This document shows positions 2,411 through 52,418 of a stretch of DNA of 64,000 nucleotides, one piece after another. Source of the stretch: Curvularia clavata (lineage: Eukaryota); contig CP089274.1 of assembly GCA_023920165.1 (NCBI GenBank), forward strand, positions 3,968,001 to 4,032,000, read 5' to 3'. A program made the position numbers and the translations under genes. Below the pieces are notes generated by a model. The model worked only from the letters and a program-made list of their open reading frames with translations. It ran no database searches and was not told the DNA's origin. Position 1 is the first letter of the stretch; every line of letters starts with the position of its first letter.

Positions 2411-3367
2411 TCAAAAATGTCCATAAAACTCCTTGTTCGCCGCCAACCTACTTGCCGCCATCTGCAAATACTGTGCTATCCTCTGGTCAGGACAATGTGT
2501 ATGTTAAACTAGTAAATCCTTGAGGGCCCTTACTTCAGCCTGGAGAAGATCTCTGTCTGCTTTCAGCAAGCGATTTTTGCGCTCAAATAGGCGGGATCGC
2601 TCAACGAGTAGCTCTTGTTCGTGTTTTTGTTTGCTGCGGCATTTGCTGGCCGCGCGCCGGTTCTTTTCGAGGTAGATGGCGCGCGCGGAACCCGGTTCGA
2701 CGTATTCGGTGTTCCGTCTTCGGTGCGTCGTGCTTATGCCGCTGCTAAAGGCGGTGACGGCAGCAGGGGTAGTGATGCTGGAGGACTGCTGCGACGAGGC
2801 GTCTTCTCCCTGGTACAGGCTGTCGCGGTGGGGGTATATGTCTTGACTGATGGGTGAGGCCGAACTGCTTGTGTCAAAATGTGACTTTGAGGGTGATGTA
2901 CTTGACGGGCTGTCATGGTAGCCAGTAGTTTGATTGGCAGGTGTAGATACGGGGGCCGAAAGAACAATTGGATTGACGTTTGCCGTTGGTATAGGGTTCG
3001 GGGTTATTGGTGGCTGCGAAGCCAACACTTTTTGTGGACCTTGCTGTACGATGGACCAAGGAGTTGAGTTCCATTCGTAGCTGGGCGTTGGCGGAGAATT
3101 TTTCTATTGCAAAGCTCGAAAACTATAGTTTATAAATTCTAGCGTTTCAGTCGTGTTGAAGCGGTTGTTGAAGAAGTGCCCATTTCCTGCTGACATTGCA
3201 GAAATGGCCTGGGCGTATGGAACAGATTCCACGAATGAACGGTTGTGCAGAGGAAACAAGACGGTAGTCGTCATGTCGGCTCCTTGAGGCTGATCCGGAT
3301 CAAAGTCAGGCTAGGAAAATCCCAAGCAAAGACGAAACGCACTTGTGGTTTGTAACGTGTTGGTCAT
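2411..3367 (-). pseudogene. ATF/CREB-like (Atf21/AtfB-type) bZIP transcription factor with in-frame nonsense codons
   Basis: Basic region and zipper RAIYLEKNRRAASKCRSKQK...L..ERS..FE..NR.LK....LL..EV..LK. The frame continues past TAA(2504) into HTHCPDQRIAQYLQMAA and upstream to ATG 3367 across two TAG codons (~3104, ~3311). Confidence 0.75.
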
Positions 3368-7035: not shown

Positions 7036-7519
7036 TTCGGCCCATTAGGTTTTTTGCTGCACAGAGACGGACGTTGATTAAGGAGCAGATGCCCGTAACT
7101 AATCATAATAATTTTAGATAAGGATTGCATGCTATATCCACAATTAACCTACTCTATTAAACGCATACATGCTCAGTAACTCTCTATTCTGTACGAAGCA
7201 AGCGCCTCTTGCCAGATTATATCCTAGGACGGAACTAGCTGCCTGTATAGGCTGCATATACTATGCAGGCAGATTTGCCACTAATATGCTATATCTCTAT
7301 ATATCGGCTGTTGTATAAAACGTTCTTTCTTAGGTTCACAGCGACGCGGTAAACTATGCCGTTGGCACTAGGATGTCTAGAACTGTTGGGTCGGTGTTGA
7401 TATCCAGCCTATTACATCAGGTACAATAAATGAAGGGAAAGGCGGCATCCTCTCATGTGCAGCGGCATAAGCTGCAATAGACTGCGACCAGGACTAGAAC
7501 TATGCGGAAAACGACAGAA
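7036..7519 (+). repeat. ~480-bp direct repeat, copy 2
   Basis: See copy 1. Confidence 0.9.
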
Positions 7520-10412: not shown

Positions 10413-12021
10413 ATGCGTGAAATCGTACGCATGCTCCCAACGTCAGATCTTCGCTGGATGCGCATCCTTATCCCGTGTTTTGCAGCAGGATCGATACGTT
10501 CAGAACAATAGCTAACGACGGCTTTTCAAACCATAGATTCACCTCCAGACAGGCCAATGCGTACGCTTGACCCCAACTCCCTCATTGAGACGGTAGCTTA
10601 CAGTTACTAGGGTAACCAAATTGGTGCTGCCTTCTGGCAAACCATCTCTGGCGAGCACGGCCTCGATAGCTCCGGTGTTTACAATGGCACCTCGGACCTC
10701 CAGCTTGAGCGCATGAACGTCTACTTCAACGAGGTACTGTATTTGGCCTTCACTGCATAAGATGAATGCTAATCAATGGCAGGCCTCCGGCAGTAAGTTC
10801 GTTCCCCGTGCCGTCCTCATCGACTTGGAGCCTGGTACCATAGACGCTGTCCGTGCCGGACAGCTCGGACAGCTCTTTCGCCCCGACAACTTCGTTTTCG
10901 GTCAATCTGGTGCTGGCAATAACTGGGCAAAGGGTCACTACACTGAGGGTGCCGAGTTGGTCGACCAGGTCCTTGATATCGTCCGCCGCGAGGCTGAGGG
11001 CTGCGACTGCATCCAGGGTTTCCAGATCACCCATTCCCTTGGTGGCGGTACTGGTGCTGGTATGGGTACGCTTCTGATCTCCAAGATCCGCGAGGAGTTC
11101 CCGGACCGTATGATGGCTACCTTCTCGGTTGTGCCTTCCCCTAAGGTCTCAGATACCGTTGTAGAGCCCTACAACGCCACACTCTCCATCCACCAGCTTG
11201 TTGAGAACTCCGACGAGACCTTCTGCATTGACAACGAGGTGTGTGGCAAGTCGACCTAGTGCTTTTGGAAGGAAGAAGCTCACTAGTTACAGGCCTTGTA
11301 CGACATCTGCACGAGGACTCTCAAGCTGAACAGTCCATCCTATGGTGACCTGAACCACCTTGTCTCCGCTGTTATGTCTGGTATCACCACCTGCTTGCGT
11401 TTCCCTGGCCAGCTCAACTCTGATCTGAGGAAACTGGCTGTTAACATGGTTCCCTTCCCTCGTCTCCACTTCTTCATGGTCGGTTTCGCCCCTTTGACCA
11501 GCCGTAGCGCCAATTCCTTCCGTGCCGTCACAGTCCCCGAGCTCACGCAGCAGATGTTCGACCCCAAGAACATGATGACTGCCTCAGACTTCCGTAACGG
11601 CCGTTACCTGACCTGCTCTGCTTACTTCCGCGGTAAAATCTCCATGAAGGAGATTGAGGACCAGATGCGCAATATCCAAAATAAGAACTCCATGTACTTC
11701 GTTGAGTGGATCCCCAACAACGTCCAGACCGCTCTCTGCTCGGTCCCGCCGCAAGGCCTTAAGATGTCCGCTACCTTTGTCGGGAACTCCACCTCCATCC
11801 AAGAACTCTTCAAGCGTGTCGGTGATCAGTTCACTGCCATGTTCAGGCGCAAGGCTTTCTTGCATTGGTATACTGGCGAGGGTATGGATGAAATGGAATT
11901 CACTGAGGCTGAATCCAACATGAACGACTTAGTCTCCGAGTATCAGCAGTACCAGGAGGCTTCTATCTCTGATGCCGAGGACGAGTACAATGAGGAGGCC
12001 CCTCTTGAGGCTGAGGAGTAG
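10413..12021 (+). CDS. tub2: Beta-tubulin (divergent copy), 5 exons
   Basis: Exons 10413-10424, 10537-10560, 10611-10733, 10783-11238, 11293-12021. MREI start, GGGTGAG signature, acidic tail. No stops. Confidence 0.97.
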
Positions 12022-13026: not shown

Positions 13027-14695
13027 ACGTACCTCACGGGTTCGCGGTCCACACGGGTTCGCGGTCCACTTTTGCCAAGACCCCACCAAAACCACCACAT
13101 TATGGCCTAATACAGCCCAACTTTAGCCAGTTTAATGCAAAAAAATATAAAATACTATTCAGAGCCTACTTCTGCTTCATTCTTACACGTTCGCGCGTTA
13201 TGCCTAGTCCTATTGCACCGTCCACACCGCCGTTGAGACGGTTCACCCACTTTAGCGCGCTTCTGCTTCTTTAACTTCTTCCTATCACTACGCACCCCAA
13301 AGTCCTGGAGAGCAGTCAAGCGCGCCCTATCTTCAACTATTAAGGTCCTCTCTGCCTGAATCTGCTTTCTTTTATGCGATTTTCGTCGCGTGGCGGCTGC
13401 GTTAGCTGCTTTAAGCTTACTAATCCGTTTTTGTGCCAATACTAGCTTATGCGCGATAATAGCTGCCCTCTTTAAGACCTTCTTAAAAGCCTCCACTATA
13501 GACGTTAGTGAGCTGTCTAGGTGCCTCTGAATCCTCTGCTTTATTAGCGTCGATTGCGACCCTATTTCAAGGGTATTCCTCAGGGTTTGCGACAGCTAGG
13601 GCTAGATATCAATAGGTAGGGGTGATAGAGTGCGCAATTGGACATTAAGGGCGGATATAACCCGTTCTAGATTAAATAGGACTAATCCAGCGCCTTAAAA
13701 CCCTCCTTAGACATTACTAGCTATAAATAATGCGTCAAAAGCCCGCCTAAAGCAAGGTAGGAACTCTTGTTTAGTAATGTGGTTGATCTGGGTGCGCATG
13801 AGCGATTCGACTTGGCGCCCATAGGCCTGCTTTAAAGGGGCAAAACAGCCTATATCAAGCGGCTATAAGAGGTGAGACGAGTGTAGAGGCATATAAAGAG
13901 TAACAATTTTGTTATCTTTGCAGTATTTTTGGAAATCTAGCGAGTTATAGCTCTCATGGCCGTCAATAAAGAGTAGATGGTGGGTACCTACTACCTTCTT
14001 CTTTGTATGCTCATCAAAGTGCTTTAGCCACGCAAGACCAAGCTCATTGGTCGTCCAGCCGTTCTCAGAGACTCCAATAACCCAGTTCTAGGGTATATCT
14101 CTATCTTTATACCAGCTTGAGAGGTAGTGGCGCGCCTTAAGTATGATAAAGGGCGGAATCGTCCACCTGGTCGCATTAATGCCCTAGATAACCGTCGCCC
14201 ACTCTCTATTGCCAGGCTAGATAGTCTTTAGCCGTCCACGTCTCTCTAAAGCTGTAACAACTACTCTAGGGGTAATCTAGCCTATTATAAAGCCTATCTT
14301 GTTAAAGTTGTATATATCGTCATCTTAGATACTATACTTGGCTTTCATATTGGCTACTAGGCTAAACTAGTCTTGAATAGCCTTAGGATCCTCACAGAGT
14401 GCTCTCTTGTAGTTATACTTGCGATTAAACTTTACTTTAAGCTTAGGGCGGCGCTTAACGAACGTACTAGGCTAGTTTTGGCCAACCTGGCCCAAATTGC
14501 GCTTAGCGCGCAAGAAATTGGCCATATTAGCTACATCTGCGAGCCTAGGGGGAAATCCACGTGAACTAAGATCAAGAATATGCTCAACAACCACCTCCTC
14601 CTCAAGCTTAGTTAGATTTATTGTTTTAGACCTGCGATCTGCTTGTGAATCCCATCTATTGCGTCTTTAACGTAGTGTTGTTCGAGAGATATTAT
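13027..14695 (-). mobile_element. pogo/Fot1 (Tc1/mariner) DNA transposon, RIP-degraded, 5' end missing
   Basis: TA then terminal ACGTACCTCACGGGTTCGCGGTCCACACGGGTTCGCGGTCCAC with an internal direct repeat. Transposase relics include CENP-B HTH (LEEEVVVEHILDL..RGFPP), DDE region (FIDGHES, PLDIGCFAPLK) and C-terminal RRCGRC...HNARTC. Many TAG/TAA. Confidence 0.92.
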
Positions 14696-14904
14696 TGTCA
14701 GGACCTGGTCCAAATTGGGACATGTTGGTCCAATTCCCTCCTTCTTCACGCTAGTTAGTCAGCTAGGGCTTACCTAAGGCTATAAAGCCTCCACGATCGC
14801 TAGAGGTGCTCGATAGCGATTCGTCTCGTGAATACATGGCTGTTAAAGCATAGTTCTCTCTCATCTATCTCGTGCTGTACCTTCACGCCACTAACAGTCT
14901 AACA
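14696..14904 (+). repeat. 5' LTR (209 bp)
   Basis: TGTCAG...CTAACA, TATAAA at 14781, identical by eye to 21819-22027. Confidence 0.97.
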
Positions 14905-14936
14905 TTCGAATCGCTCTCCTCAAGTACACCTACGAG

Positions 14937-16169
14937 ATGTCAGAGAGAGCCATGCCGAACCCAGGTAGTCGCCAAACTCGGAGCCGCCCAAGGTCAACTC
15001 GAAACACGGTAGTAGGGGACTCACAGCCCACTCTAACTAGAGACTCAACCCAGCCATCTTCAAGTGAACTATCCGAGCCTGCCGTCACGGAGGCAGATCA
15101 GGCCGAACTGGCACAGAGAAGCCCAATTCAGGGCAGCCCAGCTCGACTTGAACCACCTCAGACCACCATTGCTCAACAGCTAGACGAACTGCGCGCTTGG
15201 AGGCAACGAGCGCTTGACGAGCAAGAACTGAAACGTCTCCAGGAAATCAAGCGTCGGTTCGACCAAGGTGACACGACAGCACTGACAGAGGACCTATATG
15301 AACCACACCGTGCGGTGGGGATACAACTAGAACCAAACGTGGGAGCTCCACGACCAGAAAAACCAACACAGTTCACAAGCCGCGATCGTGCCGAGTACAA
15401 TCGCTGGGAACGCGAATGTGAGGCAACGTTTAGGGGAAGCCCTAAAACGTTCCAAACAGAGGCAGTCAAGATCGATTTTGGGCTTAGGTATATCACTGAC
15501 CCCCTACGCTCCACATGGGACGCCTATTATCACGACTACTGTAGAAAAGACACGAATTGGACACCCACGTGGCTAGACCTGAAGACTGTAATGGTGGATT
15601 CACTGGGACCACCAGAACAGCGGAAGCTTGAAGCCCACCGAGCTCTCAAACACATCAGACAGGACTGGTCTCAGGACCCAAACGACCTGTTGGCCAAATT
15701 GGACACACTTTGGTCCGAATTGGGCAATGCCTACTCGGAAGAGCAGAGAGTGAGGGACTTTATGGGCGCTTTGACAATGACAATACAGAAAGAGTTGCTT
15801 TTACTCGAACCAGGTCAAAGAAGCACAATCTCAGACCTAAACGCGCGAGCGCGACTTATCTGGGACAGAACGAAAAGAGAGAAGCCTAGCAACGCTAGAA
15901 CAACGCAGAACAAGCAAGCCAGGAGCGGCACACCACCAAAGAACACAAGAGGGTACGAAAAAACCCTGAAAAAACAAAGACGGAACCCTGCGGATACAAA
16001 AGGTTCATACGCGGCAAACAAGGTTCGAGGACGCGACGCAGAGGGCAAAATTGTCTGTTACAACTGCGGGGAACCCGGACACATCAGCAGGAACTGTAGT
16101 AAGCACAAACAAAGCCAAGCGGCACCTGAGGAACCCAAACTGGAAAAAGGCAAGGGGCGGAGAACCTAG
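14937..16169 (+). CDS. gag: Gag
   Basis: 410 aa with CYNCGEPGHISRNC zinc knuckle. Confidence 0.95.
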   Translation: MSERAMPNPGSRQTRSRPRSTRNTVVGDSQPTLTRDSTQPSSSELSEPAVTEADQAELAQRSPIQGSPARLEPPQTTIAQQLDELRAWRQRALDEQELKRLQEIKRRFDQGDTTALTEDLYEPHRAVGIQLEPNVGAPRPEKPTQFTSRDRAEYNRWERECEATFRGSPKTFQTEAVKIDFGLRYITDPLRSTWDAYYHDYCRKDTNWTPTWLDLKTVMVDSLGPPEQRKLEAHRALKHIRQDWSQDPNDLLAKLDTLWSELGNAYSEEQRVRDFMGALTMTIQKELLLLEPGQRSTISDLNARARLIWDRTKREKPSNARTTQNKQARSGTPPKNTRGYEKTLKKQRRNPADTKGSYAANKVRGRDAEGKIVCYNCGEPGHISRNCSKHKQSQAAPEEPKLEKGKGRRT

Positions 16170-19100
16170 TAGCCCTACTCTCCGCCCATATTGCAAGGCT
16201 AGAGCTAGAAGAGGACTTGAAGACACTTCGCGAAGCAATGTTCAGCAAACCTAGCCCACTATTGACCATAACGGTGCAAATTGGCCAAGATCCACTCGAA
16301 GCGCTGATAGATGGAGGGTCTCAACTAAATCTACTCTCAATCCACCAAGCTAAGGATCACGATTTAACAATAACTCCTATACCGAATTTAGTGGCAGAAG
16401 CCTTAAGCGGCGTGGAGTTTGAGATTTATGGCACTACAGAGGTGACCATGAAAGTCACAGACACAAGAGGGAGGACTAAAGTCCAGAATATACCTTTTGT
16501 GGTGACAGAAATGAAGCATTACCCAGTATGCTTAGGTATGCCCTGGGTCGACTTCTACAAGCCCAAAATAAGCCTCCGGTCGCGTCGAGTGCTATTTAGG
16601 GGCGTGAAATATGTAGATAGGGCTTCATATGAGAAAATCGCGACAGAAAGCGCCGAAGAGTTTGAGAAAACACTCCGAACGCCCACGACGGACGTTTACG
16701 CGCTCAAAGTGTCCACTGTGATGGGTTGGGACCCAAGCGACGAGGAAGAGGACTGGGAGGGGTTGGAGAAGCCCAAGAACGCCCAGGTTGGCCCTGATCA
16801 AGCCAAGTTGCCTCAGTTGCCACCACAGTACGAGGACTTTGCGGATTTGGCCTCGGAAGAGGATGCCAAGTGCCTTGCTGAGCATGGCCCGCACGATTTG
16901 GTGATATCCTTGAAAGAAGGCACCACGCCACCACATCAGCCGCTATATGGGCTCTCGAAGAGCGAGTTAGCGCTACTCCGGGATTACTTGCGTGAGTATC
17001 TCGCGAGAGGGTGGATTAGACATTCGAAGTCGCCAGCAGGCGCACCAATACTCTTCGCGAAGAAGAAAGACGGCACGATGAGGTTATGTGTGGACTATAG
17101 AGGTCTAAACAACATAACGCTCAAAAACCGTCACCCTTTACCCTTGATTACGGAGTCCTTGGATAGATTGGCTGAGGCAAAATTCTATACCAAGCTAGAC
17201 GTCCGAGAAGCATATCATAGGGTGAGGATTAAGGAGGGAGACGAGTGGAAGACAGCCTTCCGCACCAGATACGGCCATTTCGAGTATACTGTGATGCCTT
17301 TTGGCCTTACAAACGCTCCTGCACAATTTCAGGCGTACATACACCATATCCTTGCAGGATTGGTAGATGTGAGTTGTATTGTGTATTTGGACGATATCCT
17401 GGTGTTCTCCAACACAGAAGAGGAGCACGAGAGACACGTGCGCGAAGTCTTAAACAGATTGCGCGAAGCCAAGCTGTATTTGAAGACTTCGAAGTGTGAA
17501 TGGCACACCCAACACACTGAGTTCCTTGGCTACACAGTTAGCCCCGAGGGTATAAGTATCGACCCAGATCGGGCCAAAACGGCCCAAGAATGGCCAGAAC
17601 CGCGTACAGTGCGCGATGTCCGCGTGTTTCTAGGCTTCATGAACTACTATCGTCGATTCATTGCTAACTTCTCCAGAATCGCACTGCCTTTAACTGAGTT
17701 ACTGAAAAAGGAGCCGAACGCCGCCAAAGGGGGCAAAGCTCAGCGAAAAGAGGAAAGCGTACTGCTAATTCTAGACGAAAACGCCAAGAGCGCGTTTAAG
17801 ACGCTAAAAAACTCCTTTACGGCAGTACCTATCCTAACCCACTTTAATCCAGACAATCAGACTAGAGTACAGGTCGATGCGTCGGGAGGAGCGATTGCTG
17901 GCATCCTAAGCCAGTACGTGCCCAAAGAGGCTTGCTGGAGACCCGTAGACTTCTACTCGCGCAAATTAATCGCCGCGGAGTACAACTATGACACGCATGA
18001 CCAAGAGCTACTAGCTATCGTCGCTAGTCTCCAACACTGGCGAAGATATCTTGATGGGATACACTTTGATCTAATTACTGACCATCGAAACCTGAAGTGG
18101 TTCATGGAAACCAAAACACTGAATCACCGCCAGGTACGGTCTTACTTAGCCCTATCAGGTTTTGATTTCACAATTGTACACCAACCTGGGAAAACAAACC
18201 CCGCCGACGGCCCATCGCGCAGACCCGACTACATAAAAGCCGCCCAAGAGCCAAAGCAGAAGAATAATAGCGCATATGTGCCATCGCTACGCCATCTGCT
18301 CAAATTCAATGCCGAAGGGACTGCTATAGCTGCAGCTGCCACCACACGATCACAAGGACGGCAGAATACAGCAGCGAAGCAACATGAAGACCAGAGGCAT
18401 GCAGCATTGGCTCAAGAGGCCGACTCAGAGACGGACGAATACACTTCGGACTCATGTAGCTCAGAAGAAGACGACGTGGCCAAACCAAGTCCACAAAGGC
18501 TCAAACAGGGCCACTCTGGCCCAACCGTGCCCAAGACGGCACAGGAAAAAGCAGCAGCATTAAAACAAGGTCACGACGACCCGCTTTCTGGACATTTTGG
18601 CGCAAGACGCACATTAGAGAAACTAACGCGCCACTACAAGTGGGCTGGCATGAGGAAAGACGTGGAAGACTACTGCAAATCATGCCTTATCTGTCAAAAA
18701 TCTACCCCGAAACGGCACCTGCCATACGGGCCCCTTGCACCATTACCACCACCCAATAGAGCCTGGGAGGAAGTAACAATGGACTTTATAACTGAATTGC
18801 CACCAAGCAAACTGCAAGGCGTAGTATACGACGCAATCCTCGTGATAGTCGACAGACTGACCAAAATGGCCCATTACGTGCCAGCACGGTCCAATTGGGA
18901 CGGAGTAGACCTAGCTCAGGCATGGTTGCGCGAAGTAATCCGTCTCCATGGCGTACCACGCCGAATCATATCAGATAGAGGCCCTTTAATGAACTCCACC
19001 CATTGGAAGACCTTTCTTCACTACCTTAACTCGAAACGTGTACTTACTTCGGCATACCACCCACAAACAGATGGCCGGACTGAACGCCAAAATCAGACTC

Positions 19101-19870
19101 TAGAACAGTACCTCCGCTGCTACTGTTCCCTAGAGCAGGACGACTGGGCATTATGGATCTCAGTAGGGGAATACGCGTACAATGACAGTGTACATTCGAC
19201 TACCAAGGTCACCCCCTTCCAAGCATGCAACGGCATACACCCAAGAGGCGCAGAATGGCCCAAAGACGCCCAAACTGGGGGCGAAAACCCCCTAGCGGCA
19301 AGTACTGCCTCAAGAATAATCGAAATACAACAAGAGTGCAAGAACAATATTCTAAAAGCGCAAGAGTACCAAAAACGGCACGCAGATAAGAAAAGACAAC
19401 CCATTCCTTTTAAGGTAGGGGATAAAGTACTGCTATCTAATAAGCATATTAAATCCCTGCGACCAAAGAAGAAGATCGACTGGAAATACGTTGGCCCAGG
19501 CACAATAACTGAGCAAATCGGCCCATCAGCATTTAAAGTAGATATGCCTGGCCTAAAAAACGTACACCCAGTGTTCCATGCATCCTTACTAGAGCAGTAT
19601 CACCCCCCAGGTGATATACCACATCCTGAAGTCCCAACACAACACGAACTAGGCGAGACAGGCGACGATGTCTACCTCGTGGACAAAATAGTGGGACATA
19701 GGAAGAACAAGGACGATCAGTGGGAATACTTAGTGAAATGGACTGGATACCCCGACTCTGAAAACACATGGGAGCCAGCCGCCAATGTTACCCAGAAAAC
19801 GCTTCAAGAGTTCTGGAACAAATCAAATCAGGTCCCTCGACGCAGACGCGGGCCAAAACGGGCCAAATAG
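16130..19870 (+). CDS. pol: Pol (protease-RT-RNase H-integrase-chromodomain), probably via -1 frameshift
   Basis: LIDGGS protease, YLDD RT, DAS RNase H, H..GHFG/C..C integrase and YLVKWTGY...NTWEP chromodomain. The pol frame (-1 to gag) is open from 16130 and overlaps the gag end at GGAAAAA (16142-16148). Confidence 0.96.
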   Translation, partial: GTQTGKRQGAENLVALLSAHIARLELEEDLKTLREAMFSKPSPLLTITVQIGQDPLEALIDGGSQLNLLSIHQAKDHDLTITPIPNLVAEALSGVEFEIYGTTEVTMKVTDTRGRTKVQNIPFVVTEMKHYPVCLGMPWVDFYKPKISLRSRRVLFRGVKYVDRASYEKIATESAEEFEKTLRTPTTDVYALKVSTVMGWDPSDEEEDWEGLEKPKNAQVGPDQAKLPQLPPQYEDFADLASEEDAKCLAEHGPHDLVISLKEGTTPPHQPLYGLSKSELALLRDYLREYLARGWIRHSKSPAGAPILFAKKKDGTMRLCVDYRGLNNITLKNRHPLPLITESLDRLAEAKFYTKLDVREAYHRVRIKEGDEWKTAFRTRYGHFEYTVMPFGLTNAPAQFQAYIHHILAGLVDVSCIVYLDDILVFSNTEEEHERHVREVLNRLREAKLYLKTSKCEWHTQHTEFLGYTVSPEGISIDPDRAKTAQEWPEPRTVRDVRVFLGFMNYYRRFIANFSRIALPLTELLKKEPNAAKGGKAQRKEESVLLILDENAKSAFKTLKNSFTAVPILTHFNPDNQTRVQVDASGGAIAGILSQYVPKEACWRPVDFYSRKLIAAEYNYDTHDQELLAIVASLQHWRRYLDGIHFDLITDHRNLKWFMETKTLNHRQVRSYLALSGFDFTIVHQPGKTNPADGPSRRPDYIKAAQEPKQKNNSAYVPSLRHLLKFNAEGTAIAAAATTRSQGRQNTAAKQHEDQRHAALAQEADSETDEYTSDSCSSEEDDVAKPSPQRLKQGHSGPTVPKTAQEKAAALKQGHDDPLSGHFGARRTLEKLTRHYKWAGMRKDVEDYCKSCLICQKSTPKRHLPYGPLAPLPPPNRAWEEVTMDFITELPPSKLQGVVYDAILVIVDRLTKMAHYVPARSNWDGVDLAQAWLREVIRLHGVPRRIISDRGPLMNSTHWKTFLHYLNSKRVLTSAYHPQTDGRTERQNQTLEQYLRCYCSLEQDDWALWISVGEYAYNDSVHSTTKVTPFQACNGIHPRGAEWPKDAQTGGENPLAASTASRIIEIQQECKNNILKAQEYQKRHADKKRQPIPFKVGDKVLLSNKHIKSLRPKKKIDWKYVGPGTITEQIGPSAFKVDMPGLKNVHPVFHASLLEQYHPPGDIPHPEVPTQHELGETGDDVYLVDKIVGHRKNKDDQWEYLVKWTGYPDSENTWEPAANVTQKTLQEFWNKSNQVPRRRRGPKRAK

Positions 19871-20159
19871 GGCCAATAGGAGCCAAATTAGCACATGTAC
19901 CTTCACCTACTTTTTTTCCCCAAAGGGTTTTATAGGTGTTTAACGGCATAAGCTGATTAGGGCAACCTGGCCCAAATTGGTCCATGTTGAACTGACATTG
20001 CACAACAAAAACCAAGGAATGGAAAAGTAAAGAAAAGAGAATTTCAATTATCACCTCCATCCTAATGCCCTGGGTATCTCATATGAAAGGGAAGAAAACC
20101 ACCATAGCCCATACTGACCCAATTTGGGCCAAAACGGACAAAACTAGACCCAACCACCC

Positions 20160-21225
20160 TTAATCACCGGCAACTGCGGCCTCGTACTCCTTGTTAAGCC
20201 TTGCCTTGGCTTTTTCCAAGTTCTTGATGTCATTGGTGATCTTCCTCTTGGCTTGACCCTTGGCCCCCTCCTTCTCGGACATTTTTTGCAAAATCTCTTC
20301 ATCAATGTCATTGATGCGCTTCTGAAGCTCATCAGTGACATCCTCGGCAACCTTGACCTAAAGAACCAAGTTAGTCCAAATTGGGGCAATTTGGCGTAAA
20401 TAGGGGGGAAAAGGATCACAAACCTCCTTCTTGCGCCCACCAGAGCCATACTTGGACTTCTTGACCCTTGCCTCGACCAAAGTTTCCACCTCGATCTCAT
20501 GAGCCTTCCTCTTGACCTCTTCATCCTTCTTGGAGCGGCCAAGGGCAGAAGTCTTCACACCAGAGCGGGGATCATCTTCCTCCTCGATGGCACCAGAGGA
20601 AAGAGACAGATGAGTAGCATGAGGCTCAAACCTACACAAATTAGTCCAATTTGGGCCAGATTTAGGAAAATTGGATCACTTACTTCTTGAGTGACTCAAC
20701 AATAGGCTTGCTGAACATACTAAGCCTAGTAACGGCCACCTCGTACATTTCCCTGCGCTCAGCACGAACTTCAGCCTCATTGGCACCCTCGGGGATATCT
20801 TTGTCAATGGCATGGAAGGCATCCTCAACCTTCCCAATGAGCTGGCCAAGTCTCACCCAGTCGGGGGAGAACTTGTCGGGAGGAGGCACCTAACCACTCA
20901 TTTAGCTCCAAATTGGACCAAATCAGAGCAAAACAGGGCAACTTACCGCAAAACAGACACGGTTGATGTAAGAGCAGCGAAGACACTTCATCACCTGCCT
21001 AGGCATACCGCCAGACTCCGGTTCAACCTTGTAGCCAGACCAAGCCTCAGCTACCTCAGGATTGTCGATGTCCAACATAACGCAACCCGCTCTGCCAAAA
21101 GTAACGGGCTCATTATCCCTGAAGGCGTTCAGACAGCACACACAAGCGTAGTAAGACCTCTGGCCCTTGCGTACGAACAGGTTTGACACCGTACTGCGGT
21201 TGACGGATCCAAGTGCGTTCGTCAT
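20160..21225 (-). CDS. Antisense, 3-intron accessory gene of the Gypsy element (~296 aa; Cys-rich N-terminus, charged coiled-coil C-terminus)
   Basis: Exons 21225-20947, 20889-20684, 20631-20424, 20357-20160. All introns are GT-AG with CTAA(C/T/A) branch-like sites, and the phases join into one uninterrupted ORF ending TAA. Confidence 0.85.
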
Positions 21226-21818
21226 GGTTCAAGTGGGTCTTGAAGGCCCCAATTTGGGGGTGTTTGGGACGAATCGGTCGAATCTGTCGCGAAATGGATC
21301 GTATGGGAGGAAACAGCCTAAAAAGAAAAGTCAGCAGAAAACTCCAAGTCCAGGGGAAGAACCTCAGAAAAAGGCAACAAAACCAAGGTCGACTGCAAAC
21401 TGGCCCAAATTGGGCCAAACTGTTGCAAACAGACCGTGGGTGGAAGGTGTCGGGCCCAAACTGAGAAGACCCACAAAATGGGAGTCTACTTACCAAAGTG
21501 GGGTTGGTGGACTGTGGGGTGTACTGGGCTTAGTCAAAAACTGGCTATTGTATCCCTGGATCCGCACTAAATTAGCGCGTCACGTGACTCTTGGCGCTGC
21601 CCAGGAGTACCCTGATGGGCCGGGTTGGCCCAAAGTGGGGCAGTCGGCTAGGCAGCAGCGCAAAACTCCGCTATTATGACGTCATAGCCCTGGGGCGGTG
21701 AGCAAGTAAAATACACCCTCCAACCCACACGGCGGCATCACCCAGTAATCGCTCAAACTGGGCGGCAAGCATGATAAGTTGCGCAGCTGGGACAGCTGCA
21801 CCCTAAGAAGGGAGGTAT

Positions 21819-22027
21819 TGTCAGGACCTGGTCCAAATTGGGACATGTTGGTCCAATTCCCTCCTTCTTCACGCTAGTTAGTCAGCTAGGGCTTACCTAA
21901 GGCTATAAAGCCTCCACGATCGCTAGAGGTGCTCGATAGCGATTCGTCTCGTGAATACATGGCTGTTAAAGCATAGTTCTCTCTCATCTATCTCGTGCTG
22001 TACCTTCACGCCACTAACAGTCTAACA
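21819..22027 (+). repeat. 3' LTR (209 bp)
   Basis: Identical to the 5' LTR, preceded by a PPT. Confidence 0.97.
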
Positions 22028-22987
22028 GCTATAAATAGTAAAGAAAAAAAGAAATAAACTTATAGGATTGCACTTTTTCTTCTACTAAATGTAATAAAGA
22101 CACTTCTTAGAGAAATCAGACGGGTAGGCATAAGCAATATCGAACTAACGGCGCGCTAAGGTGCGGATAGCTTGCAGATAGATGAAGCGATACGCATCTA
22201 GTAGCGCACTAGACAGACAACGAAGAGGCATAGTAAAAACAAGTGCGTTAAGTTATAATTAACTTATTTTAATTAAAAAGCGTAGAAGAGAAAACTTGGC
22301 GGCAATACTATATTATTATTAATATACATACTAGGAGAGCAAATAGTCTTAGCACATGTAATCTAGATAGCCGTTAGACCCTAACTACAAACAAATCACC
22401 AGCGACTTAGAGCTCCGATCAAAGCGTCCAGGCCTGTCTAGCAGATGAAAGCAAATGGCCTAGCGGCCAGGCAGCAAGGTAGCAGCGCCACGTAAGTACC
22501 GGAATAGTTACTAAAGCTCAGACACAGAGGCTTAAGTAAAGGACATGCACGGCCACGGGAGCCATACCAAAACTAGAGCATCCTATTGTCTAGAGTAGCG
22601 CAGTGTGGGGAAAATCTAGAGGAAATCAGAAATAAAAGACCCTATAGTGCAGGGAAGAAGAATGACAACCAGAACAGATAGCTGTGGGACCAGCTATCTA
22701 CTAGGAGAGGGGGTAATATAACTATATATAGACTAAAATATACCCTAGCTAAGGCAGCTTATTAAGATCTGATTAAGAGCTGGGTTAGACCTGATGAAGA
22801 CCCGCACCTAGATATAAGTACTAGGTACCTTCTATAGATGTTTGGTAGATTTTTAATATCTTTTTATACCAGGCCTATAAGTGTCTACTAAATCTAAGGT
22901 GTTTCTGCTGTCCCACGCACTTCCATATGCATTTGAGTGACACTTCCCACCGGAACCGATTCGACTAGTCTTGCTCGCGCCGTTACA
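22028..22987 (+). mobile_element. 3' end of an older RIP-degraded LTR retrotransposon (PPT ~22703-22713, LTR ~22717-22987)
   Basis: aggagaggggg purine tract, then tataac (RIP-like TGTAAC) ... gttaca end. It interrupts the next pogo element. Confidence 0.6.
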
Positions 22988-32477: not shown

Positions 32478-34765
32478 CTACAGAGCCAAAGTGCCAAAGC
32501 TGTTTTTATCGTTACATTCCTGTAGCTTGGCCTCAACGTCGCCCACAGATCGGTGCCAATGCCCGTCTGATTCTTCGATGTGGTCTAGAGCTGCAAAGAG
32601 CAGTCTCAAAGAAGCCACAACACCATTCATATTCTCGCGGGCTCCTTCATGTACAAGTTCTCGATACAACGCCTTCAACGCCATGGTCAAAGGCCAGGCT
32701 ATGAAAATGGCCTGAAGCATGATGATGTCGCTATTCGCGTTCCGTGGTGACGGCAAATTGAGGCCCACCGCGTTGCATATCTGGAACGCAGCAGCGGTAG
32801 CTCGGCGTTGGCTTTCTGCAACCATCAATGGCGGTAGCCCCTGTTCATCATTCTTCTTTATGGCCGAGTCATGCGAAAAGATCTCAGTAGCGCGCAGATT
32901 CAGGTAGAGACTGAAAGCTACTGGATCTTCGCGGATGGATGTGGCATTGAGATGACGCTTCAGAATTTTGAATAGATCATCGGTCCTCTTGACTAGAGCG
33001 CAGTAGTCATCCCAGAAGCCTGGCTTGTTGCGATTTTGTCCATTGTCAAAGCAGCGTAAGGCTAACTCAACCATCAAAACGCAGCCTGCGTAAGAACTAA
33101 GCTCGGTTCCAGGTTCGGTATTGATACCTAGCAGCGACGGCATCTTCAGAGGCTCTAGGTCTGATCGCAGCAGTCCTGGCGATGGCAAGTTGATTCGGAG
33201 ATTCTGAACACAAAGTCAGCTGTGCCGCAAATACAGTTGACGTTGCAGATTGATACGCACCTTGGTATCTTCCAGCTGATACTCCCAACCTGTGCGCGTT
33301 CTCACATAGCTTTGGAGTATATACAACCCCCAGAATGTCCGTCGCCGTTCCTCCAGAAGAACTGGATCCTCTGTGTGCGGTAAAGCTACATGAGGACCGC
33401 TTTGAGTCTCATCATTGTGTATTCCCTGATCACTTTCGTCTGCGTCCATCTGATTTAGTTTCAAAAGCTTGCAAAGCATAGCGGCACGTCCAAGCGTCAG
33501 CCAGCTTCTTTCCAGTTTTCGGCTCATAGCCTCAAAGCGGCCTATCAACAGTAAAGCTTGGAGAAGATTTAGATCATTCAGACAATCCTCTTGTTCACAC
33601 CTTTCGGCATAGTTGCGCGCTAGTTTGTAACACGTTAAATGTCGATTATGATCTGGAGGAGAGTGAGAGCATCCTGCAAGAGCAACAGCATAAATCAAGG
33701 CGCTTATTGCAGGGCTATGAGCATGCACTTTTTCGGCCATGAACCTGTCTCTGTTGATAAATGGGAAAGAGAAATAGGCGAGTTCGAAGTAATGACTATG
33801 CAGCAGAGGTAGATCTGTTGGGGACAGGTCTTCATCTGAGCCGTTTGAGGGCGCTGGCTGAGATTGATTGAGGAGCATGTTGTCCAACGGTTCAAGCGCC
33901 ATGAATGGCTGGTCTGCCCAGGAGAACGACATATTTGAGTCCGCTCCCTCGGCAAAAGAAGTGAAAATATCAGGATCGAGAGCTGAGTCGTGGGTGAAGG
34001 CATTGTTTGTGGCATTTGTTTCTCTTACATTATCCAGGTCTCTTGGGATGTTGTTTTCTGATATTTCCAAAGATGGTAACTGAGGCTGGGAAGCAGTTGT
34101 TCCTGGTAGCTGACACTGTGAGCTTCGTCGCGAGCATGAGTTTGATGCAAAAGGATCTGGCGTTTCAATTCACCTTGTCCAAGCAGCCGACTCGATGCCT
34201 TCTGGCAATGACTGGGAACGTACTGAAGGATGTGATATCTGCGTGCTCAGGGCCAGCTGGGCTTCGGTCTTAGCTAGCCGCTCCTGAAGCTGCTTCACCT
34301 GCTCGTCGCGAGTGCGACGCTGGTGTGAATGATCATAGCTACATGGTTGACTGAGACGAGCGCATCGCCTAGACAGCGAAGAAAACAATTAGCATGATAC
34401 CCTTGAGCTCGAGATGGCTAGAAGACTTCGAGCAATTTAGGGGAACCAACCTGCATTTTGGAAGAGCTCTGTCGCAACGAACTTTACGCTCCCTAACCGT
34501 TAAGCGGTTAGCGATCTGAACAACCCATTTTGTCTCATCAAGTGTAAATCAGCTGAATTTCGGAAGCATCATACCAAACCCTGCATTTTGGGAATCATCT
34601 GGCTATTGGAGTGAAAGAGAAGGCAGAGACTTGTTCATTTGTAGAAAGCTGCGTGCACGCCTGCTGATGATTTGTACACGGCAGAACACATTGCTGGAGG
34701 ACTTGCCTGCATATTTCACAAGCATATTGTGCTGTGGAACCCGTGCCAGCAGATGACGATCTCAT
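32478..34765 (-). CDS. Zn(II)2Cys6 transcription factor with fungal-specific TF (MHR) domain
   Basis: Spliced CEICR|ERKVRCDRALPKCR|RCARLSQPC; middle region LQALLLIGRFE...EERRRTFWGLYI. The first intron has a GC donor (gcaagt, 34706). Confidence 0.88.
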
Positions 34766-38222: not shown

Positions 38223-41109
38223 ATGCTGGACTTTTCAGCTTTCGTTCCGCGTGACCCCTTCCACCAGCTCACGGTCACTCTGTGTATCGTTGGCCTCTTC
38301 CTCGCTGCTGTGTTTGCTATTGCTCTCCGTCCAAAGAGCAAAGGACATGAGCCTAGCACCGTTGAAGCATACCTAAAGTTCATCTATGGTTGCTTCTTGA
38401 AGCCTCACACCGGTGATGGATCTGGAAGCCAGCAAGATGCTCTCGTATGGCGAATCTATACAATGCCTCACTGTAGCTAACCGCACAACAGGAGAGCTTC
38501 TACAAAGCACAGGCTGAAGTATACGATGCTACCCGCACCAGGCTCCTCCGCGGTCGCGAGGAAATGCTGGGATTGGTCGCCGCACAACTCAAGCACCGCA
38601 CTGAAGCCGGCCTGATTTCTCAGCGCCCTGTCTGGGTCGATGTAGGCAGATACTCACACTAGAAGTGGTACGGATGCTAACTAAAACAGATTGGTGGGGG
38701 AACTGGATTCAAGTGAGTGTACATGTGCTGGTCTTACCACACGCCTTCTAACGGACTCCTAGCGTCGAGCAAATGAACGCTTACGTCCCTGTGGCAAGCT
38801 TCTTCCGTTCAGTTTGTAAGTTGTAGAGGCTGAGTTCATCGAGTACTGCTAACCATCATAGACGTCGTGGACCTCTCACCGAGTCTTTGCGAGATGGCAC
38901 GCAAGCGCTTCGCCCGCCTAGGCTGGACCAACGTCAAAGTCATTTGCCAGGATGCACGTGCTTTCCGTCTGCACGAGCATGAGCCTCAGGCCTACGAACG
39001 CAAGGAAATGATCTCCAAAGGCCAGACTGTTCGCGACCTCGACGAGAACGCTGATGCAGGAGGTGCTGAGCTTGTCACTATGAGCTACTCCCTGAGCATG
39101 ATCCCCGAGTTCTATCCTGTCATTGACTCCGTGGGCAGCCTCTTGAGCCCCAATGGCGTCTTTGGTGTCGTCGACTTCTATGTACAAGACCAAGTGGACT
39201 TCCGGGGCAGGAACTACATTGGCGGTGCCATTGACCGTCACTGCATGTGGCTTTCCCGAGTCTTCTGGAGGGAGTGGTTTGCTATCGACAGAATTTCGCT
39301 TGGCCCTGCTCGAAGAGTAAGTTAGTTACGAAGGATCGGTGACACTTGCTAATTACATCAGGACTACCTCGAGTTTAAACACGGTACTATTCTCAGCATG
39401 AACGCCCGCAATAACTTCTTCAACACTGGTATCAAGCTCCCATACTACATCTGGATTGGATGCTCAAAGGATCACGGTGCTTCGACGCAGAAGCTCGCCA
39501 AGATTGATGCCGCTGCCACTGAATCCCCATACCTCAATGCGCTCGATCTTCAAACTGGAGCTGCACCGGCCGATGCTGAGGTTCATTCCAAGGCGTACGA
39601 ATCCGCAGTCATCAACCTCCAATCTAGCTTGCCTCTACCATCTGCATGGTACCAAAACCATCACTGGCGCATTCACTACGACTCATCCCTTCCCAAACAC
39701 ACTCGGTTCAACAACTCGTACATCTACGCCTTTACTTGGGAGGACGATGTGGCTGATATGCGACTCCTGAAGCCCACATCTAACGACGTCGTTTTGGCCA
39801 TTGGCTCCGCTGGTGACAACATCCTCGCTTTCTGCCTCGAGAACTGCCGTCGCGTTCACGCTGTCGACCTCAATCCCTCACAAAACCATCTTCTCGAGCT
39901 CAAGGTTGCAGCCTTCACAGCACTTGGCTATCAAGATGTTTGGAAACTCTTCGGAGAGGGCAAGCACCCAGACTTCCATGACATGCTCATCCAGAAGCTC
40001 AGCCCACATCTCTCATCGGAAGCCTTCCAGTTCTGGCTACAGAATGGTCCATCTGTCTTCTCTGCTAAATCCTCCAAGGGTCTCTACTACTCTGGCGGCT
40101 CAGGAAACGCCATCGCGATTGCCGGCTGGCTCTTCCGCATCCTTGGTATGACCTCTGATGTCAAGGCCCTCTGCGCAGCCCAAACCCTCAATGAGCAGCG
40201 TGAGATCTGGCAACGCAGCATCAAAACCGTGCTTCACTCCAAGATCCTAACCTACGCCGTCCTCGGTAACGAGAAGTGGCTTTGGAAAGCCCTCGGTGTT
40301 CCACCAGCCCAACGCGACGTCATCGAAGCCGACTTCAAGAAGACACAAGACTACGACGAAGCCAAGGCGACAAAACCCAAGGACACCGCCGCAGACTACA
40401 TGGCCTTCCACGAAGAGCCTTCCGACGAGGAACTCAAAAGTTCCAGCGGCAACGCCATCTACGAATACGTACTCAACACCTTCGAGCCTGTCGTCAACAC
40501 CACTCTCCTCAGTACCTCAAACCACTACTACCTCCTCACTCTCCTGGGCCACTACACCCCAACCTCTCACCCCACCTACCTCTCCCCCAAGTCTCACGTG
40601 AAGCTCTCCAAGCCCGGTGCCTTCAACGGCCTGCGCATCCACACGGACGAAATCTCCGAAGTGATTTCGCGCATGCGACCAGGCACCCTCACCATTGTCG
40701 TCGTAATGGACAGCATGGACTGGTTCCCTCCAAACGGTACACAAGCGCTTCGCCAGATCCGGGCGCTCAACCGAGCGCTCAAGGTTAAAGGCCGCGTTAT
40801 GCTGCGTAGTGCGGGCTTGGAACCGTGGTACATCAAGTGCTTTGCCGAGTGTGGCTTTGCGACAAAGAGGGTTGCGGTTAGGCTACCTGGCACGTGTATT
40901 GATCGGTATGTATCTCCTCTGCTTGCAATGTCTTTAAGTGGATGTGTATGCTAACGTATCACAGGGTCAACATGTACGCCTCCACATGGATTTGTACAAA
41001 GGAGGTGGAGCTCGTTAAGGAGATGACCAGTCCTAAGGTGAATGCGGGGCTGAGAAAGGCGTCGCTGGCTGAGTTGAAGCTTGAGGCTCCTGCTATGCGT
41101 GTTGAGTAG
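38223..41109 (+). CDS. BTA1: Betaine lipid (DGTS) synthase, fused methyltransferase + DUF3419 domains
   Basis: ESFYKAQAEVYDATRTRLLRGRE, WVDIGGGTG, SYSLSMIP, YIYAFTWED, VDLNPSQNHLLELK, MDSMDWF, DRVNMYAS. Multi-exon. Confidence 0.92.
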
Positions 41110-43779: not shown

Positions 43780-44103
43780 GGGGCATAGTGGAGATGACGT
43801 AGAGGCAGTCGCCGAGAGAATACAAGTGTGTTCTTCATCTTCTTCCACATGGTAAATATGAACTAAATTAATCAACAAAAGATGGAATTGACGAAAATGC
43901 ATCCTGTCTCAATCCAGCTAGACGTGCCTCGATAAGCCAGGTCGCGTAGCTTATCGCAGCGCTGACACCACATGACCACCTGTGCATACGCGTGCGTGCG
44001 TGCATGACATAACGCGAGGCTTGTGGGGAAACTCTCGGACGCTACCTCATCTGACATGCCTCGACTCCACAATGTATCCTCCCTCCCCAACCCATCTTCC
44101 ACC

Positions 44104-51200: not shown

Positions 51201-52418
51201 GGTCATGATGAGACAGCTGGCTTCGGGCTTGATCTGCACATCTCCCGTTAAGATGCCGACATCGTCAAAAGTTTGGCGGAAGTCCCGGAACTTTTGGTTA
51301 CTAAGAGCCTTGATTGGAGAGGTGTAGATGGCTTTTGTCATGTGCTTGGCAGCGAGTGCAATGGCATATTCTGCAACCACGGTCTTGCCAGCAGAGGTGT
51401 GCGCAGCTACAAAGACTGAATCACCATTCTCCAGATGATAGACTGCCTCTTTCTGGAAGGTATCCAGCTCGAAAGGATACTCGCGCGCCATTTCGGGCAC
51501 AAGCTCACGAAAATTGGTGATGTCGCGGTTGATGTCAACCATGTGGGCCCACTCTCGCCCGCCTTTCCTTCCGGCTCCCATGGAAAGGGGACCATGCGGA
51601 GCCAGTGCGGGAAACTCTACTGGCAAGAGGGCATCAATTTCTTCTTCTCCAGGGGTCTGGCTGTCATCGGGCACGTCAGTGCCGTTCGCACCAGTGTTGT
51701 TGATGTCATCCTCGTCGTCAGCTCTTGTTTCATCAGTGGGAGCAGGTGCCTCTCCCAGCGTGTCTTCCACCTCTTTTTCGATGCTGGTGTCCGTAGTAGG
51801 TTTCTTCTGCAAGTCTAGGCCACGCGTGAACCCTGGGGGAACTTCAAGGAGACCACCTTCAGCGCTGAAATTGATCACCCGGTCAAGGCCTCCAGCCTTC
51901 TTCCTGGTGGCGTTTTCTTGCTGCTGAATTGCCTCGTCTTCAATCGCCGCGATTGCCTCGACCCCTTCTAAGCCACCGGGTGCGAAGGGAAAAAAGCCGG
52001 CGGCACCACGAACGAATTCCGCTCTGTTAGCCGGCTTTCGGAGGAGCGAGGTCGAATTCTTAGCGGTCGCAGAGTTGGCAGGCACTGTAACCTCCTTGTA
52101 CCCGGTGACTCGACCCTCGAGGCCCTCACGCGTGAAGCGAATAATAGTCCGGGTTTGGGTTGGAGCGATTTGAAACAGGCTGCGATAGTTTGTTGGGGCA
52201 TCCCAGCGCTGCTGAAGCTGATTGAGCCATGGTGCATTGAAAGACCTCGAGGGCGTCAAGAACTCTTGCTCAAGCTCCTTTTTGATGACCTCTTTGGTTT
52301 TCCGTTGACGCTTGGGGGGTTGTTGTTTGCCGGCTAATGAGTCTATCCAGCCAGCCTCTTCGTCGAGCTTACTGCTGCTCAGCCGCAGCTCCTCTAGTTG
52401 CCCAGACAAAGCCTCCAT
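48238..52418 (-). CDS. SKI2: Ski2-like DEVH-box RNA helicase
   Basis: AHTSAGKT, DEVH, SAT, QMAGRAGRRG, RG-rich insert, DSHCT C-terminus ending ...ASLYL. Multi-exon. Confidence 0.95.

Follow-up and report, generated by a model that had tools for sequence, protein, structure and literature searches.

A spliced antisense gene with a conserved six-cysteine domain in a fungal chromovirus

The antisense gene and its host element

The 64,000-nucleotide (nt) stretch of Curvularia clavata contig CP089274.1 analysed here (assembly GCA_023920165.1, positions 3,968,001 to 4,032,000; hereafter the window, with coordinates counted from its first letter) carries an intact, apparently young Ty3/Gypsy chromovirus, and on the opposite strand of this retrotransposon, between pol and the polypurine tract, lies a spliced gene for a protein of 296 amino acids (aa). 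The element spans 7,335 base pairs (bp; 14693-22027, Table 1), is the single copy of this chromovirus in the window and is bounded by two 212-nt direct repeats, its long terminal repeats (LTRs), that are 100% identical. Between them stand gag and pol, the latter with Pfam domains in the order protease, reverse transcriptase (RT), RNase H and integrase (RVT_1, E 6.8e-38; RT_RNaseH, 9.6e-31; Integrase_H2C2, 5.4e-19) and with a chromodomain at residues 1182-1231 (PF00385 Chromo, E 9.3e-17). The antisense gene sits in the gap of 1.9 kilobases (kb) that extends from the pol stop (19870) to the polypurine tract (21805). LTR, Pfam and coordinate evidence thus agree with a preliminary description of this DNA, which had placed such a gene inside an intact chromoviral Gypsy element.

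Read on the minus strand, the gene opens at the ATG at 21225, its first exon stays in frame up to a GTAAGT donor at 20946, and four exons join into 891 nt that encode the 296 aa and a TAA ending at 20160. The three introns (57, 52 and 66 nt) are all GT...AG, and each has a CTAAY/CTAAA-type branch motif near its 3' end; without splicing all frames are broken, and the six-frame list holds pieces of 101, 69, 105 and 65 aa. The four exons, three GT-AG introns and approximate length of 296 aa given in the preliminary description were reproduced down to the exact junction coordinates.

A finder of spliced open reading frames (ORFs) was allowed to start at any ATG and to use at most three GT-AG introns, each 44-120 nt long and with a branch motif. 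From the minus strand as it stands it recovered 296 aa and from the plus strand of this region 151 aa, and the same finder applied to 200 first-order Markov shuffles gave a median of 78 aa, a 95th percentile of 139 aa and a maximum of 181 aa. Because 296 aa compares with a shuffle maximum of 181 aa, the spliced frame lies far beyond chance. An ORF built by chance from fragments through convenient GT-AG choice, an idea that draws on the commonness of short GT...AG pairs and on the 151 aa recovered from the plus strand, is hardly credible in the face of this result, of homologues with E-values down to 5.6e-23, of conserved intron positions and of a spliced RNA contig. Two plus-strand ORFs of the region (20695-21186 and 21155-21679) match no Pfam family.

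Nineteen sequencing runs are listed, seven of them with part of the stretch, and four (X1, X2, X3 and X6) were examined as Logan contigs. In X3, a root metatranscriptome, a contig of 260 nt (record 6, depth 4.1, 8 letters other than the window's) aligned on 20125-20359, and its 25 trailing letters match 20426-20450 with two mismatches and nowhere else in the window. Because CT stands at both 20358-20359 and 20424-20425, the join can be read as 20357|20424, the exact removal of intron 3, which we infer from the placement of the 25-letter tail. Among the junctions proposed in the preliminary description, 20424/20357 is therefore found in a contig from an RNA library, and the other two, 20947/20889 and 20684/20631, fall within 20360-21063, where X3 contigs give no cover. 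As to an antisense promoter of the gene's own, the record comprises this one minus-strand, GT-AG-spliced RNA contig, and the promoter itself is still a candidate.

A shorter X3 contig (record 7, 84 nt, depth 2) reads 21064-21118 followed by letters matching 21175-21203, so that it skips 56 nt (21119-21174) that are GT...AG on the minus strand. Their removal within exon 1 would lose C28, C30 and C31 and shift the frame, and record 8 of the same run crosses the interval unspliced; the skip may be alternative splicing or an assembly artefact.

In the close copy sampled by X6, all four coding differences are synonymous, and contigs of both X1 and X6 connect the upstream region of the gene to the LTR in the same way as the window. 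An X1 contig (record 3, 21077-21177) has 14 other letters over 101 nt, of which the 9 listed are all C-to-T or G-to-A; the changes destroy C28, C30 and C31, and the flanks are AT-rich, unlike the window, so that the contig looks like a dead element copy in organism A, mutated by repeat-induced point mutation. In X6 record 15, position 21418 is followed by three other letters and then by 21850, so that the stretch upstream of the gene is missing together with the polypurine tract and the initial 34 nt of the LTR; it is a rearranged or deleted copy in organism C.

Table 1. Features of the chromovirus and of its antisense gene, in window coordinates (UTR, untranslated region; NLS, nuclear localisation signal)
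Feature	Position	Strand	Remarks
5' LTR	14693..14904	+	212-nt repeat identical to 21816-22027; one CCAAATTGG at 14710-14718
gag (zf-CCHC)	14937..16169	+	open frame 14895-16169; ATG 14937; Pfam zf-CCHC E 1.8e-08
pol: protease, RT, RNase H, integrase, SH3, chromodomain	16130..19870	+	1246-aa open frame
3' UTR of antisense gene, minimum extent	20125..20159	-	X3 record 6 spans 20359 down to 20125
Exon 4: K/E-rich coiled-coil-like tail and TAA	20160..20357	-	aligns with last exons of related elements L001, L003, L004, L006
Intron 3, 66 nt, GT-AG, ACTAAC branch site	20358..20423	-	removal seen in RNA; CCAAATTGG at 20376-20384
Exon 3: opens with conserved FxPxxxHLxLxxGA motif, closes with basic NLS-like stretch	20424..20631	-	
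Intron 2, 52 nt, GT-AG, ACTAAT branch site, phase 2	20632..20683	-	homologous place and phase in L001, L003, L004, L009; CCAATTTGG at 20646-20654; no spliced RNA
Exon 2: variable middle region, partly acidic	20684..20889	-	
Intron 1, 57 nt, GT-AG, phase 0	20890..20946	-	CCAAATTGG at 20908-20916; no RNA contig cover
Exon 1: start codon and 93-aa six-cysteine domain (C28, C31, C48, C81, C84, C91)	20947..21225	-	
5' UTR of antisense gene, minimum extent	21226..21403	-	X3 record 9 covers 21174-21403
Candidate 5'-UTR intron, 176 nt, GTAAGT...CTGAC...TAG	21318..21493	-	putative
Candidate internal promoter	21494..21804	-	holds GTCACGTGAC (21579-21588) and ATGACGTCAT (21676-21685); promoter role putative
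Polypurine tract AAGAAGGGAGG	21805..21815	+	abuts 3' LTR; read from sequence
3' LTR	21816..22027	+	212-nt repeat; CCAAATTGG at 21833-21841

The same gene in related elements and in protein databases

With the C-terminal 389 residues of pol as query, a scan of metagenome contigs from JGI yielded 36 loci, whose six-frame ORFs were compared with a profile of exon 1. Three loci matched (L004, E 4.5e-23; L001, 2e-21; L003, 8e-19), the next best value being 0.13, and each match is a minus-strand ORF located 1.1-1.7 kb downstream of pol. These three are every locus with pol at least 65% identical to the window's and with more than 600 nt after pol; L002, L007, L011 and L012 are similarly close in pol, but their contigs end too early (L002 is 97% identical to L001, in an alignment that stops before exon 4). 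The gene of L003 lies within 179-nt LTRs that are 99% identical, and L001 and L004 are unit-length contigs with terminal repeats.

Scripted gene models gave 286 aa for L001 (introns 79/72/58 nt), 297 aa for L003 (67/115/68 nt) and 293 aa for L004 (50/55/52 nt), beside the 296 aa of the window (57/52/66 nt), and in all four elements four exons are separated by introns at homologous alignment positions, in phases 0, 2 and 0. Across these elements the pol segment is 65-72% identical, whereas the full-length antisense proteins share only 21-30% of their residues. Within 12 exon-1 sequences (23-46% identical to that of the window), M1, N15, C28, C31, G44, G47, C48, C81, R83, C84 and C91 are invariant. 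The six cysteines listed in the preliminary description are thus the conserved ones, but the window protein has seven (28, 30, 31, 48, 81, 84 and 91), the extra C30 not being conserved among relatives. That description had also named loss of the frame and of the cysteines in diverged family members as a result that would speak against the gene; both are kept in L001, L003 and L004.

A regular expression for six ordered cysteines, run over the six-frame ORFs of all 36 loci down to a length of 50 aa, retrieved 10 ORFs, eight of which (L001, L003, L004, L009, L010, L014, L015 and L016) lie on the minus strand just downstream of pol; of the others, the L008 ORF is the same gene as that of L009, and the L011 ORF is an unrelated one on the plus strand. 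L009 and L010, with pol 46-48% identical to the window's, have the pattern C-x2-C-x14-C ... C-x2-C-x7-C. Introns in the L009 model are again in phases 0, 2 and 0, and its exon 3 begins KPLADHLYAHSG, compared with FEPHATHLSLSSGA in the window, an opening motif common to the window, L004, L009 and the database protein P0002 (see below); for L010 the splice finder gave no model with phases 0, 2 and 0. Taken alone, the hhalign link between the L009/L010 clade and the window clade is weak (E 0.016), and the genes of L008, L009 and L010 are regarded as homologues because place, strand, intron phases and motif accompany it.

Between L010 and L009, exon 1 differs at 11, 7 and 41 sites by codon position over 80 codons, with a ratio of nonsynonymous to synonymous differences (pN/pS) of 0.13, and the last exon has a pN/pS of 0.21. 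The third-position bias and the ratio of 0.13 point to purifying selection on the minus-strand frame, the property for which a comparison of element copies had been proposed in the preliminary description. Two other loci are less complete members of the family: in L006 (pol 58%), whose contig ends 1.1 kb after pol, exons 3 and 4 are present, and L013 (pol 54%) retains a decayed, AT-rich remnant. On these comparisons the gene is an old and stable component of a fungal chromovirus clade, its protein under purifying selection.

A candidate 5'-UTR intron of 104-176 nt was noted in four elements (window 21318-21493, minus strand; L001 4791-4924; L003 10674-10834; L004 6809-6912), in each of which a single strong GT(A/G)AGT donor is followed by a branch site and by an acceptor 40-120 nt before the ATG. 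This suggests an intron conserved across the four elements; the case is weakened by X3 record 9, which runs across the window acceptor unspliced.

Exhaustive phmmer comparison of exon 1 (93 aa) with 1.84 billion cluster representatives (E<=0.001) returned seven proteins, none of them from plants. Six align across the whole domain (E 5.6e-23 to 5.7e-4), all retaining the six cysteines, and fall in clusters of 1-2 members; the seventh, P0004, a repeat protein matching only query residues 5-34 in nine stretches, was set aside as spurious. Five of the six homologues are 92-104 aa long and end a few residues past a conserved C-x-A-V, endings which indicate that gene callers read exon 1 through into intron 1. 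The remaining one, P0002, comes from Alternaria gaisen, where a spliced gene model of 309 aa bears the annotation 'hypothetical protein'. Weak matches to exon 3 (E 0.002) and exon 4 (E 0.013) follow each other in the same order along this protein, exon 2 is without a match, and, used as a query of the ESM Atlas, P0002 gave a best score of 0.76, below the usable level.

A word-index profile search added only P0010 and P0011, which correspond to P0003 in shortened or frame-shifted form and show G-to-A-type changes in their residues (D to N, E to K, A to T), as expected for decaying repeat copies; they suggest that the P0003 lineage of the antisense gene is multi-copy and decaying in some genome. 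A search for longer proteins with exon 1 gave no match, and neither did one of longer proteins (542-2000 aa) with A1, a poorly chosen query; a locus search with A2 gave 240 pattern matches and no relatives, and exon 1 had no match among viral contigs.

The homologues also bear on whether this copy might recently have captured an ordinary host gene, an alternative already raised in the preliminary description. The sole named homologue, P0002, is a 'hypothetical protein' model on a contig of 351 kb, which would suit a host gene, but the gene occupies the same place and strand in L001, L003 and L004, in diverged form in L008-L010 and with exons 3-4 in L006, elements whose pol is only 46-72% identical to that of the window. 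Moreover, no large host gene family emerged among the representatives searched with exon 1, the six true hits falling in their very small clusters, and P0010 and P0011 resemble decayed repeat copies. Capture by this copy alone is accordingly very unlikely, and we hold with high confidence that the locus is a real, conserved, element-borne protein-coding gene.

The six-cysteine domain, recurrent palindromes and surrounding DNA

Canonical fungal Zn2Cys6 clusters are spaced C-x2-C-x6-C-x5-12-C-x2-C-x6-8-C. The window protein has C-x2-C-x16-C-x32-C-x2-C-x6-C, which is canonical only in its second half, and the relatives share the expanded pattern. An AlphaFold2 model of the 93-aa domain reached a mean predicted local distance difference test score (pLDDT) of 81.5 and a predicted template modelling score (pTM) of 0.67 with 12 aligned sequences (pLDDT 68.3 with 8); in this metal-free model there are four helices, two of which begin at the C-x2-C pairs (residues 29-36 and 82-86). 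Because the six invariant cysteines form two C-x2-C-helix units, zinc binding is the natural reading of the domain, and we consider it likely.

The domain resembles those of the fungal Zn(2)-Cys(6) family (PF00172; GAL4, LEU3) in the order C-x2-C ... C ... C-x2-C-x6-C, in a canonical second half with the basic R83 inside C-x2-C, in the helix begun by each C-x2-C of the model, in a coiled-coil-like region later in the protein and in a family restricted to fungi. It departs from them in its first loop (16 residues against 6) and linker (32 against 5-12), in a coiled-coil-like tail that is about 140 residues away from the cluster and not adjacent to it, and in the absence of the middle domain typical of fungal-specific transcription factors. 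The cysteines may form a long-looped, Zn2Cys6-like binuclear cluster. Beyond the domain, the last 130 aa hold 29 K+R and 28 E+D, and the coiled-coil-like label applied to exon 4 (and to the tail of P0002) denotes sub-threshold Pfam coiled-coil matches only. An NLS-like patch of the (S/T)P(K/R)KR type stands at the exon 3/4 border in four of five full-length sequences, the window having GRKKEVK.

More distant elements add a variant of this arrangement. In L014 (5547-6155), L015 (6302-6997) and L016 (2333-2923), with pol 37-40% identical, intron-free antisense ORFs on the minus strand directly follow pol, that of L015 lying within an LTR pair (121-276 / 7263-7418). These three ORFs have the full canonical spacing, C-x2-C-x6-C-x8-C-x2-C-x6/7-C, and directly after the cluster a coiled-coil-like stretch, again by sub-threshold matches only. 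Zn_clus matched two of the three, the better match (E 0.24) scoring 11.9 bits, below the cut-off of 21, and the match of LEU3 to the canonical-spacing ORFs has E 2. When the window group and the canonical-spacing group were aligned with hhalign, 19 columns of the second half were paired (E 0.0019, probability 15%).

The element is also rich in short palindromes. CCAAWTTGG occurs 11 times in the window, compared with 0.5 expected, and 10 of these sites lie inside the element (14710, 15694, 19972, 20119, 20376, 20646, 20908, 21249, 21405 and 21833; the remaining one is at 10616). They are placed near the 5' end of each LTR (one each), in gag (one), after the stop (two) and before the start (two) of the antisense gene, and in each coding intron (one), immediately ahead of its branch site; most form part of a longer, GGCCCAAWTTGGGNC-like palindrome. 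The related form CCCA-N3-TGGG is found five times in the window's element (0.11 expected) and not at all in the other 56.7 kb of the window, seven times in L003 (mostly CCCATWATGGG), three times in L004, not in L001 and once in nine other loci. L003 has its own variant, with GGCCCATWATGGGCC-like sites that include its LTRs and introns, as does L004 (TGGGCCATATGGCCCA), and L001 has repeated GMCCCATT half-sites only. The palindromes may be sites for the antisense protein or for a host factor, or RNA signals. Two further palindromes, both perfect, lie in the candidate promoter, one E-box-like (GTCACGTGAC) and one CRE-like (ATGACGTCAT); the corresponding upstream regions of L001, L003 and L004 contain neither.

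The remainder of the window is ordinary fungal nuclear DNA. The element is flanked by GATAT (14688-14692) and GCTAT (22028-22032), which at four of five identical letters would form an imperfect target-site duplication if the LTRs end where the repeat does, and the DNA around it is AT-rich (GC 0.41-0.43 in 12-14 kb and 22-24 kb). A tubulin gene (10717-12021, +), in two ORF pieces and hence with an intron, lies 2.7 kb upstream of the element. Other host genes encode a bZIP factor (2504-3103, -), a Fungal_trans factor (33216-34169, -), a DUF3419 protein (39353-40954, +), a ferric reductase (44008-46050, +) and a Ski2-type helicase (49674-52532, -).

Possible roles of the gene and relation to known antisense genes

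Introns that are antisense to genomic RNA cannot be spliced from it, a principle on which antisense-intron retrotransposition reporters are based, and because the introns of the present gene have this orientation they survive every round of reverse transcription. In the explanation that we favour overall, transcription of the gene would start from a promoter inside the element, close to the 3' LTR (21494-21804), and the product would consist of the N-terminal six-cysteine domain, followed by a variable acidic middle part, an NLS-like basic patch and a coiled-coil-like tail rich in K and E. Such a protein would hold zinc via its six cysteines, enter the nucleus, self-associate through the tail and bind nucleic acid of its own element, tuning sense or antisense transcription; it would be an accessory regulator comparable to the antisense or accessory factors of retroviruses. 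We regard it as moderately probable that the element here encodes, in a gene of its own, a nuclear, zinc-dependent nucleic-acid-binding accessory regulator.

Several results weigh against this explanation. One of the three coding junctions is represented in RNA, by one contig of depth 4.1 with 25 letters across the join, and contigs of X1, X2 (labelled RNA-Seq cDNA) and X6 run through intron 2 or 3, which indicates that unspliced RNA or DNA is also present. The X3 coding differences comprise 6 synonymous and 5 residue-changing ones among 11, and the sequence outside the cysteine framework is weakly constrained, as the 21-30% full-length identity attests. Pfam gave no family for exons 1-3 at E<=0.1, and Zn_clus (PF00172) was matched by none of eight members scanned at E<=10. 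A sequence-profile search of the PDB (A3) returned chance caspase rows only (E>=0.6); the pLDDT 81.5 model had no Foldseek neighbour in the PDB at E<=0.001 and none in BFVD, and in VIA-align none of 48,161 chains reached Z>=2; the first model (pLDDT 68) had no Foldseek match and a best VIA Z of 2.4. Such absence of fold neighbours indicates neither a new fold nor its absence, nor does it prove a difference from the fold of solved GAL4-type domains. The expanded spacing and the Pfam, PDB and fold searches, none with a match, do not bear out the membership in the Zn2Cys6 family that the preliminary description had proposed, although the canonical second half and the full canonical spacing in the distant elements give that proposal some ground. 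Finally, zinc binding, nuclear localisation, self-association and DNA binding are all properties that we infer.

A protein of this kind could instead serve replication, as a zinc-dependent chaperone of RNA or cDNA, a packaging factor or a helper in nuclear import of the pre-integration complex, and not regulate transcription. No DNA-binding fold could be linked to the domain, cysteine-rich zinc modules such as the zf-CCHC of gag bind RNA too, the NLS-like patch is conserved, and nuclear import is raised as a possible role of plant antisense ORFs (aORFs) in the cited part of PMC7264820. A zinc knuckle is, however, already supplied by gag, and the same-place ORFs of the distant elements, with canonical Zn2Cys6 spacing and a (sub-threshold) coiled-coil-like stretch, have the layout of DNA-binding proteins; we consider a replication factor unlikely.

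More improbable still is that the antisense RNA itself is the functional product, pairing with the 3' part of the genomic RNA and feeding RNA interference or lowering sense expression as a form of copy-number control, with the protein secondary. The mRNA would be the exact complement of some 1.1 kb or more in the 3' region of the genomic RNA, and a double-stranded RNA role for antisense aORF transcripts is discussed in the part of PMC7264820 cited here. Yet antisense RNA alone would not preserve a frame of 286-307 aa with six invariant cysteines or intron phases 0/2/0 among proteins 21-30% identical, nor would it yield a pN/pS of 0.13 with differences mainly at third positions. An RNA role alongside that of the protein may exist.

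Returning to the nuclear accessory regulator, DNA binding is the form that we favour for its action, because of the cysteine and coiled-coil-like layout of the distant relatives and because of the palindromes; that the protein is a sequence-specific DNA-binding regulator of the element is nevertheless a tentative proposal, somewhat short of probable. A bolder version, which we think doubtful, is that the chromovirus clade encodes an antisense, intron-protected, dimeric transcription factor derived from Zn2Cys6 proteins, binding lineage-specific palindromes of its element (GGCCCAAWTTGGGCC-like in the window, GGCCCATWATGGGCC-like in L003).

Catalogues of extra antisense genes in LTR retrotransposons, from plants and from Botrytis, go back some 25 years, and the window gene joins this already known kind of reverse-strand extra gene. 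The fungal example is brtn of Boty (Botrytis, Sclerotinia; Zhao et al. 2011, Virology 417:248), portrayed in the cited passages of PMC8365987, PMC7264820 and PMC4227169 as an extra gene of a fungal chromodomain Gypsy element, of no known function and located after pol and before the 3' LTR on the strand opposite to gag-pol. The two genes are likened here by published descriptions only, not by sequence; a passage of PMC5987419 reports BLAST matches to the BRTN protein, which suggests that its sequence is publicly available, and none of the seven proteins matched by exon 1 carries that name. As far as these passages go, an antisense extra gene in a fungal chromovirus was already in print, and the novelty asserted in the preliminary description was overstated. 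In the literature consulted, which includes the Boty brtn study through papers citing it, we came upon no mention of an antisense gene of the zinc-cluster type in a fungal retrotransposon.

In plants, the consulted part of PMC7264820 names maize Grande, rice RIRE2, Silene Retand and Phaseolus PvRetro13 as elements with an antisense ORF in the interval from pol to the 3' LTR, reports for Grande gene23 a promoter of its own and nuclear localisation of GENE23, and states the function of such aORFs as not known. The window gene (20160-21225, minus strand, between the pol stop and the start of the 3' LTR at 21816) has the position and orientation of the plant aORF-3R described there and is likewise family-wide rather than single-copy, being found in L001, L003 and L004, in the diverged form of L008-L010 and, by its exons 3-4, in L006. 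The plant genes differ in belonging to another host kingdom and mostly to non-chromovirus lineages, and no similarity in sequence emerged, exon 1 having matched no plant protein. The window gene differs from them in its six-cysteine domain and in its short introns of fungal type, three or perhaps four in number, whose positions are conserved.

The HBZ gene of human T-cell leukaemia virus type 1 (HTLV-1) is antisense and spliced, is transcribed from the side of the 3' LTR and encodes a bZIP nuclear factor that modulates transcription of the element itself. On paper the likeness is one of an antisense, spliced message for a small protein of the nucleus that combines a basic region with a coiled coil, properties that in the window protein are predicted ones. 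There is no relation in sequence or fold, HBZ being a bZIP protein without a cysteine cluster, and the HBZ promoter lies in the 3' LTR, whereas the window LTR has only 212 bp and the candidate promoter is internal. An HTLV antisense promoter is also cited in the part of PMC7264820 consulted.

Compared with the known examples, the gene is more tractable, owing to its conserved multi-intron structure, its invariant six-cysteine domain and its relatives with canonical zinc-cluster spacing, and it resides in a young-looking, intact element of a fungus, where such genes can be mutated. The compact domain and the over-represented LTR palindromes, as possible binding sites, provide experimental handles, and the conserved intron-exon structure is a sign of selection on the protein. 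Gene callers and repeat masking hide genes of this kind, of which the database has almost only exon-1 fragments and one 'hypothetical protein'. If the palindrome-binding factor were real, sites in U3 of both LTRs and in every intron and UTR of the factor's own gene would make up a self-contained, co-evolving circuit of factor and site, and the protein would be a Tat- or HBZ-like autoregulator of a retrotransposon.

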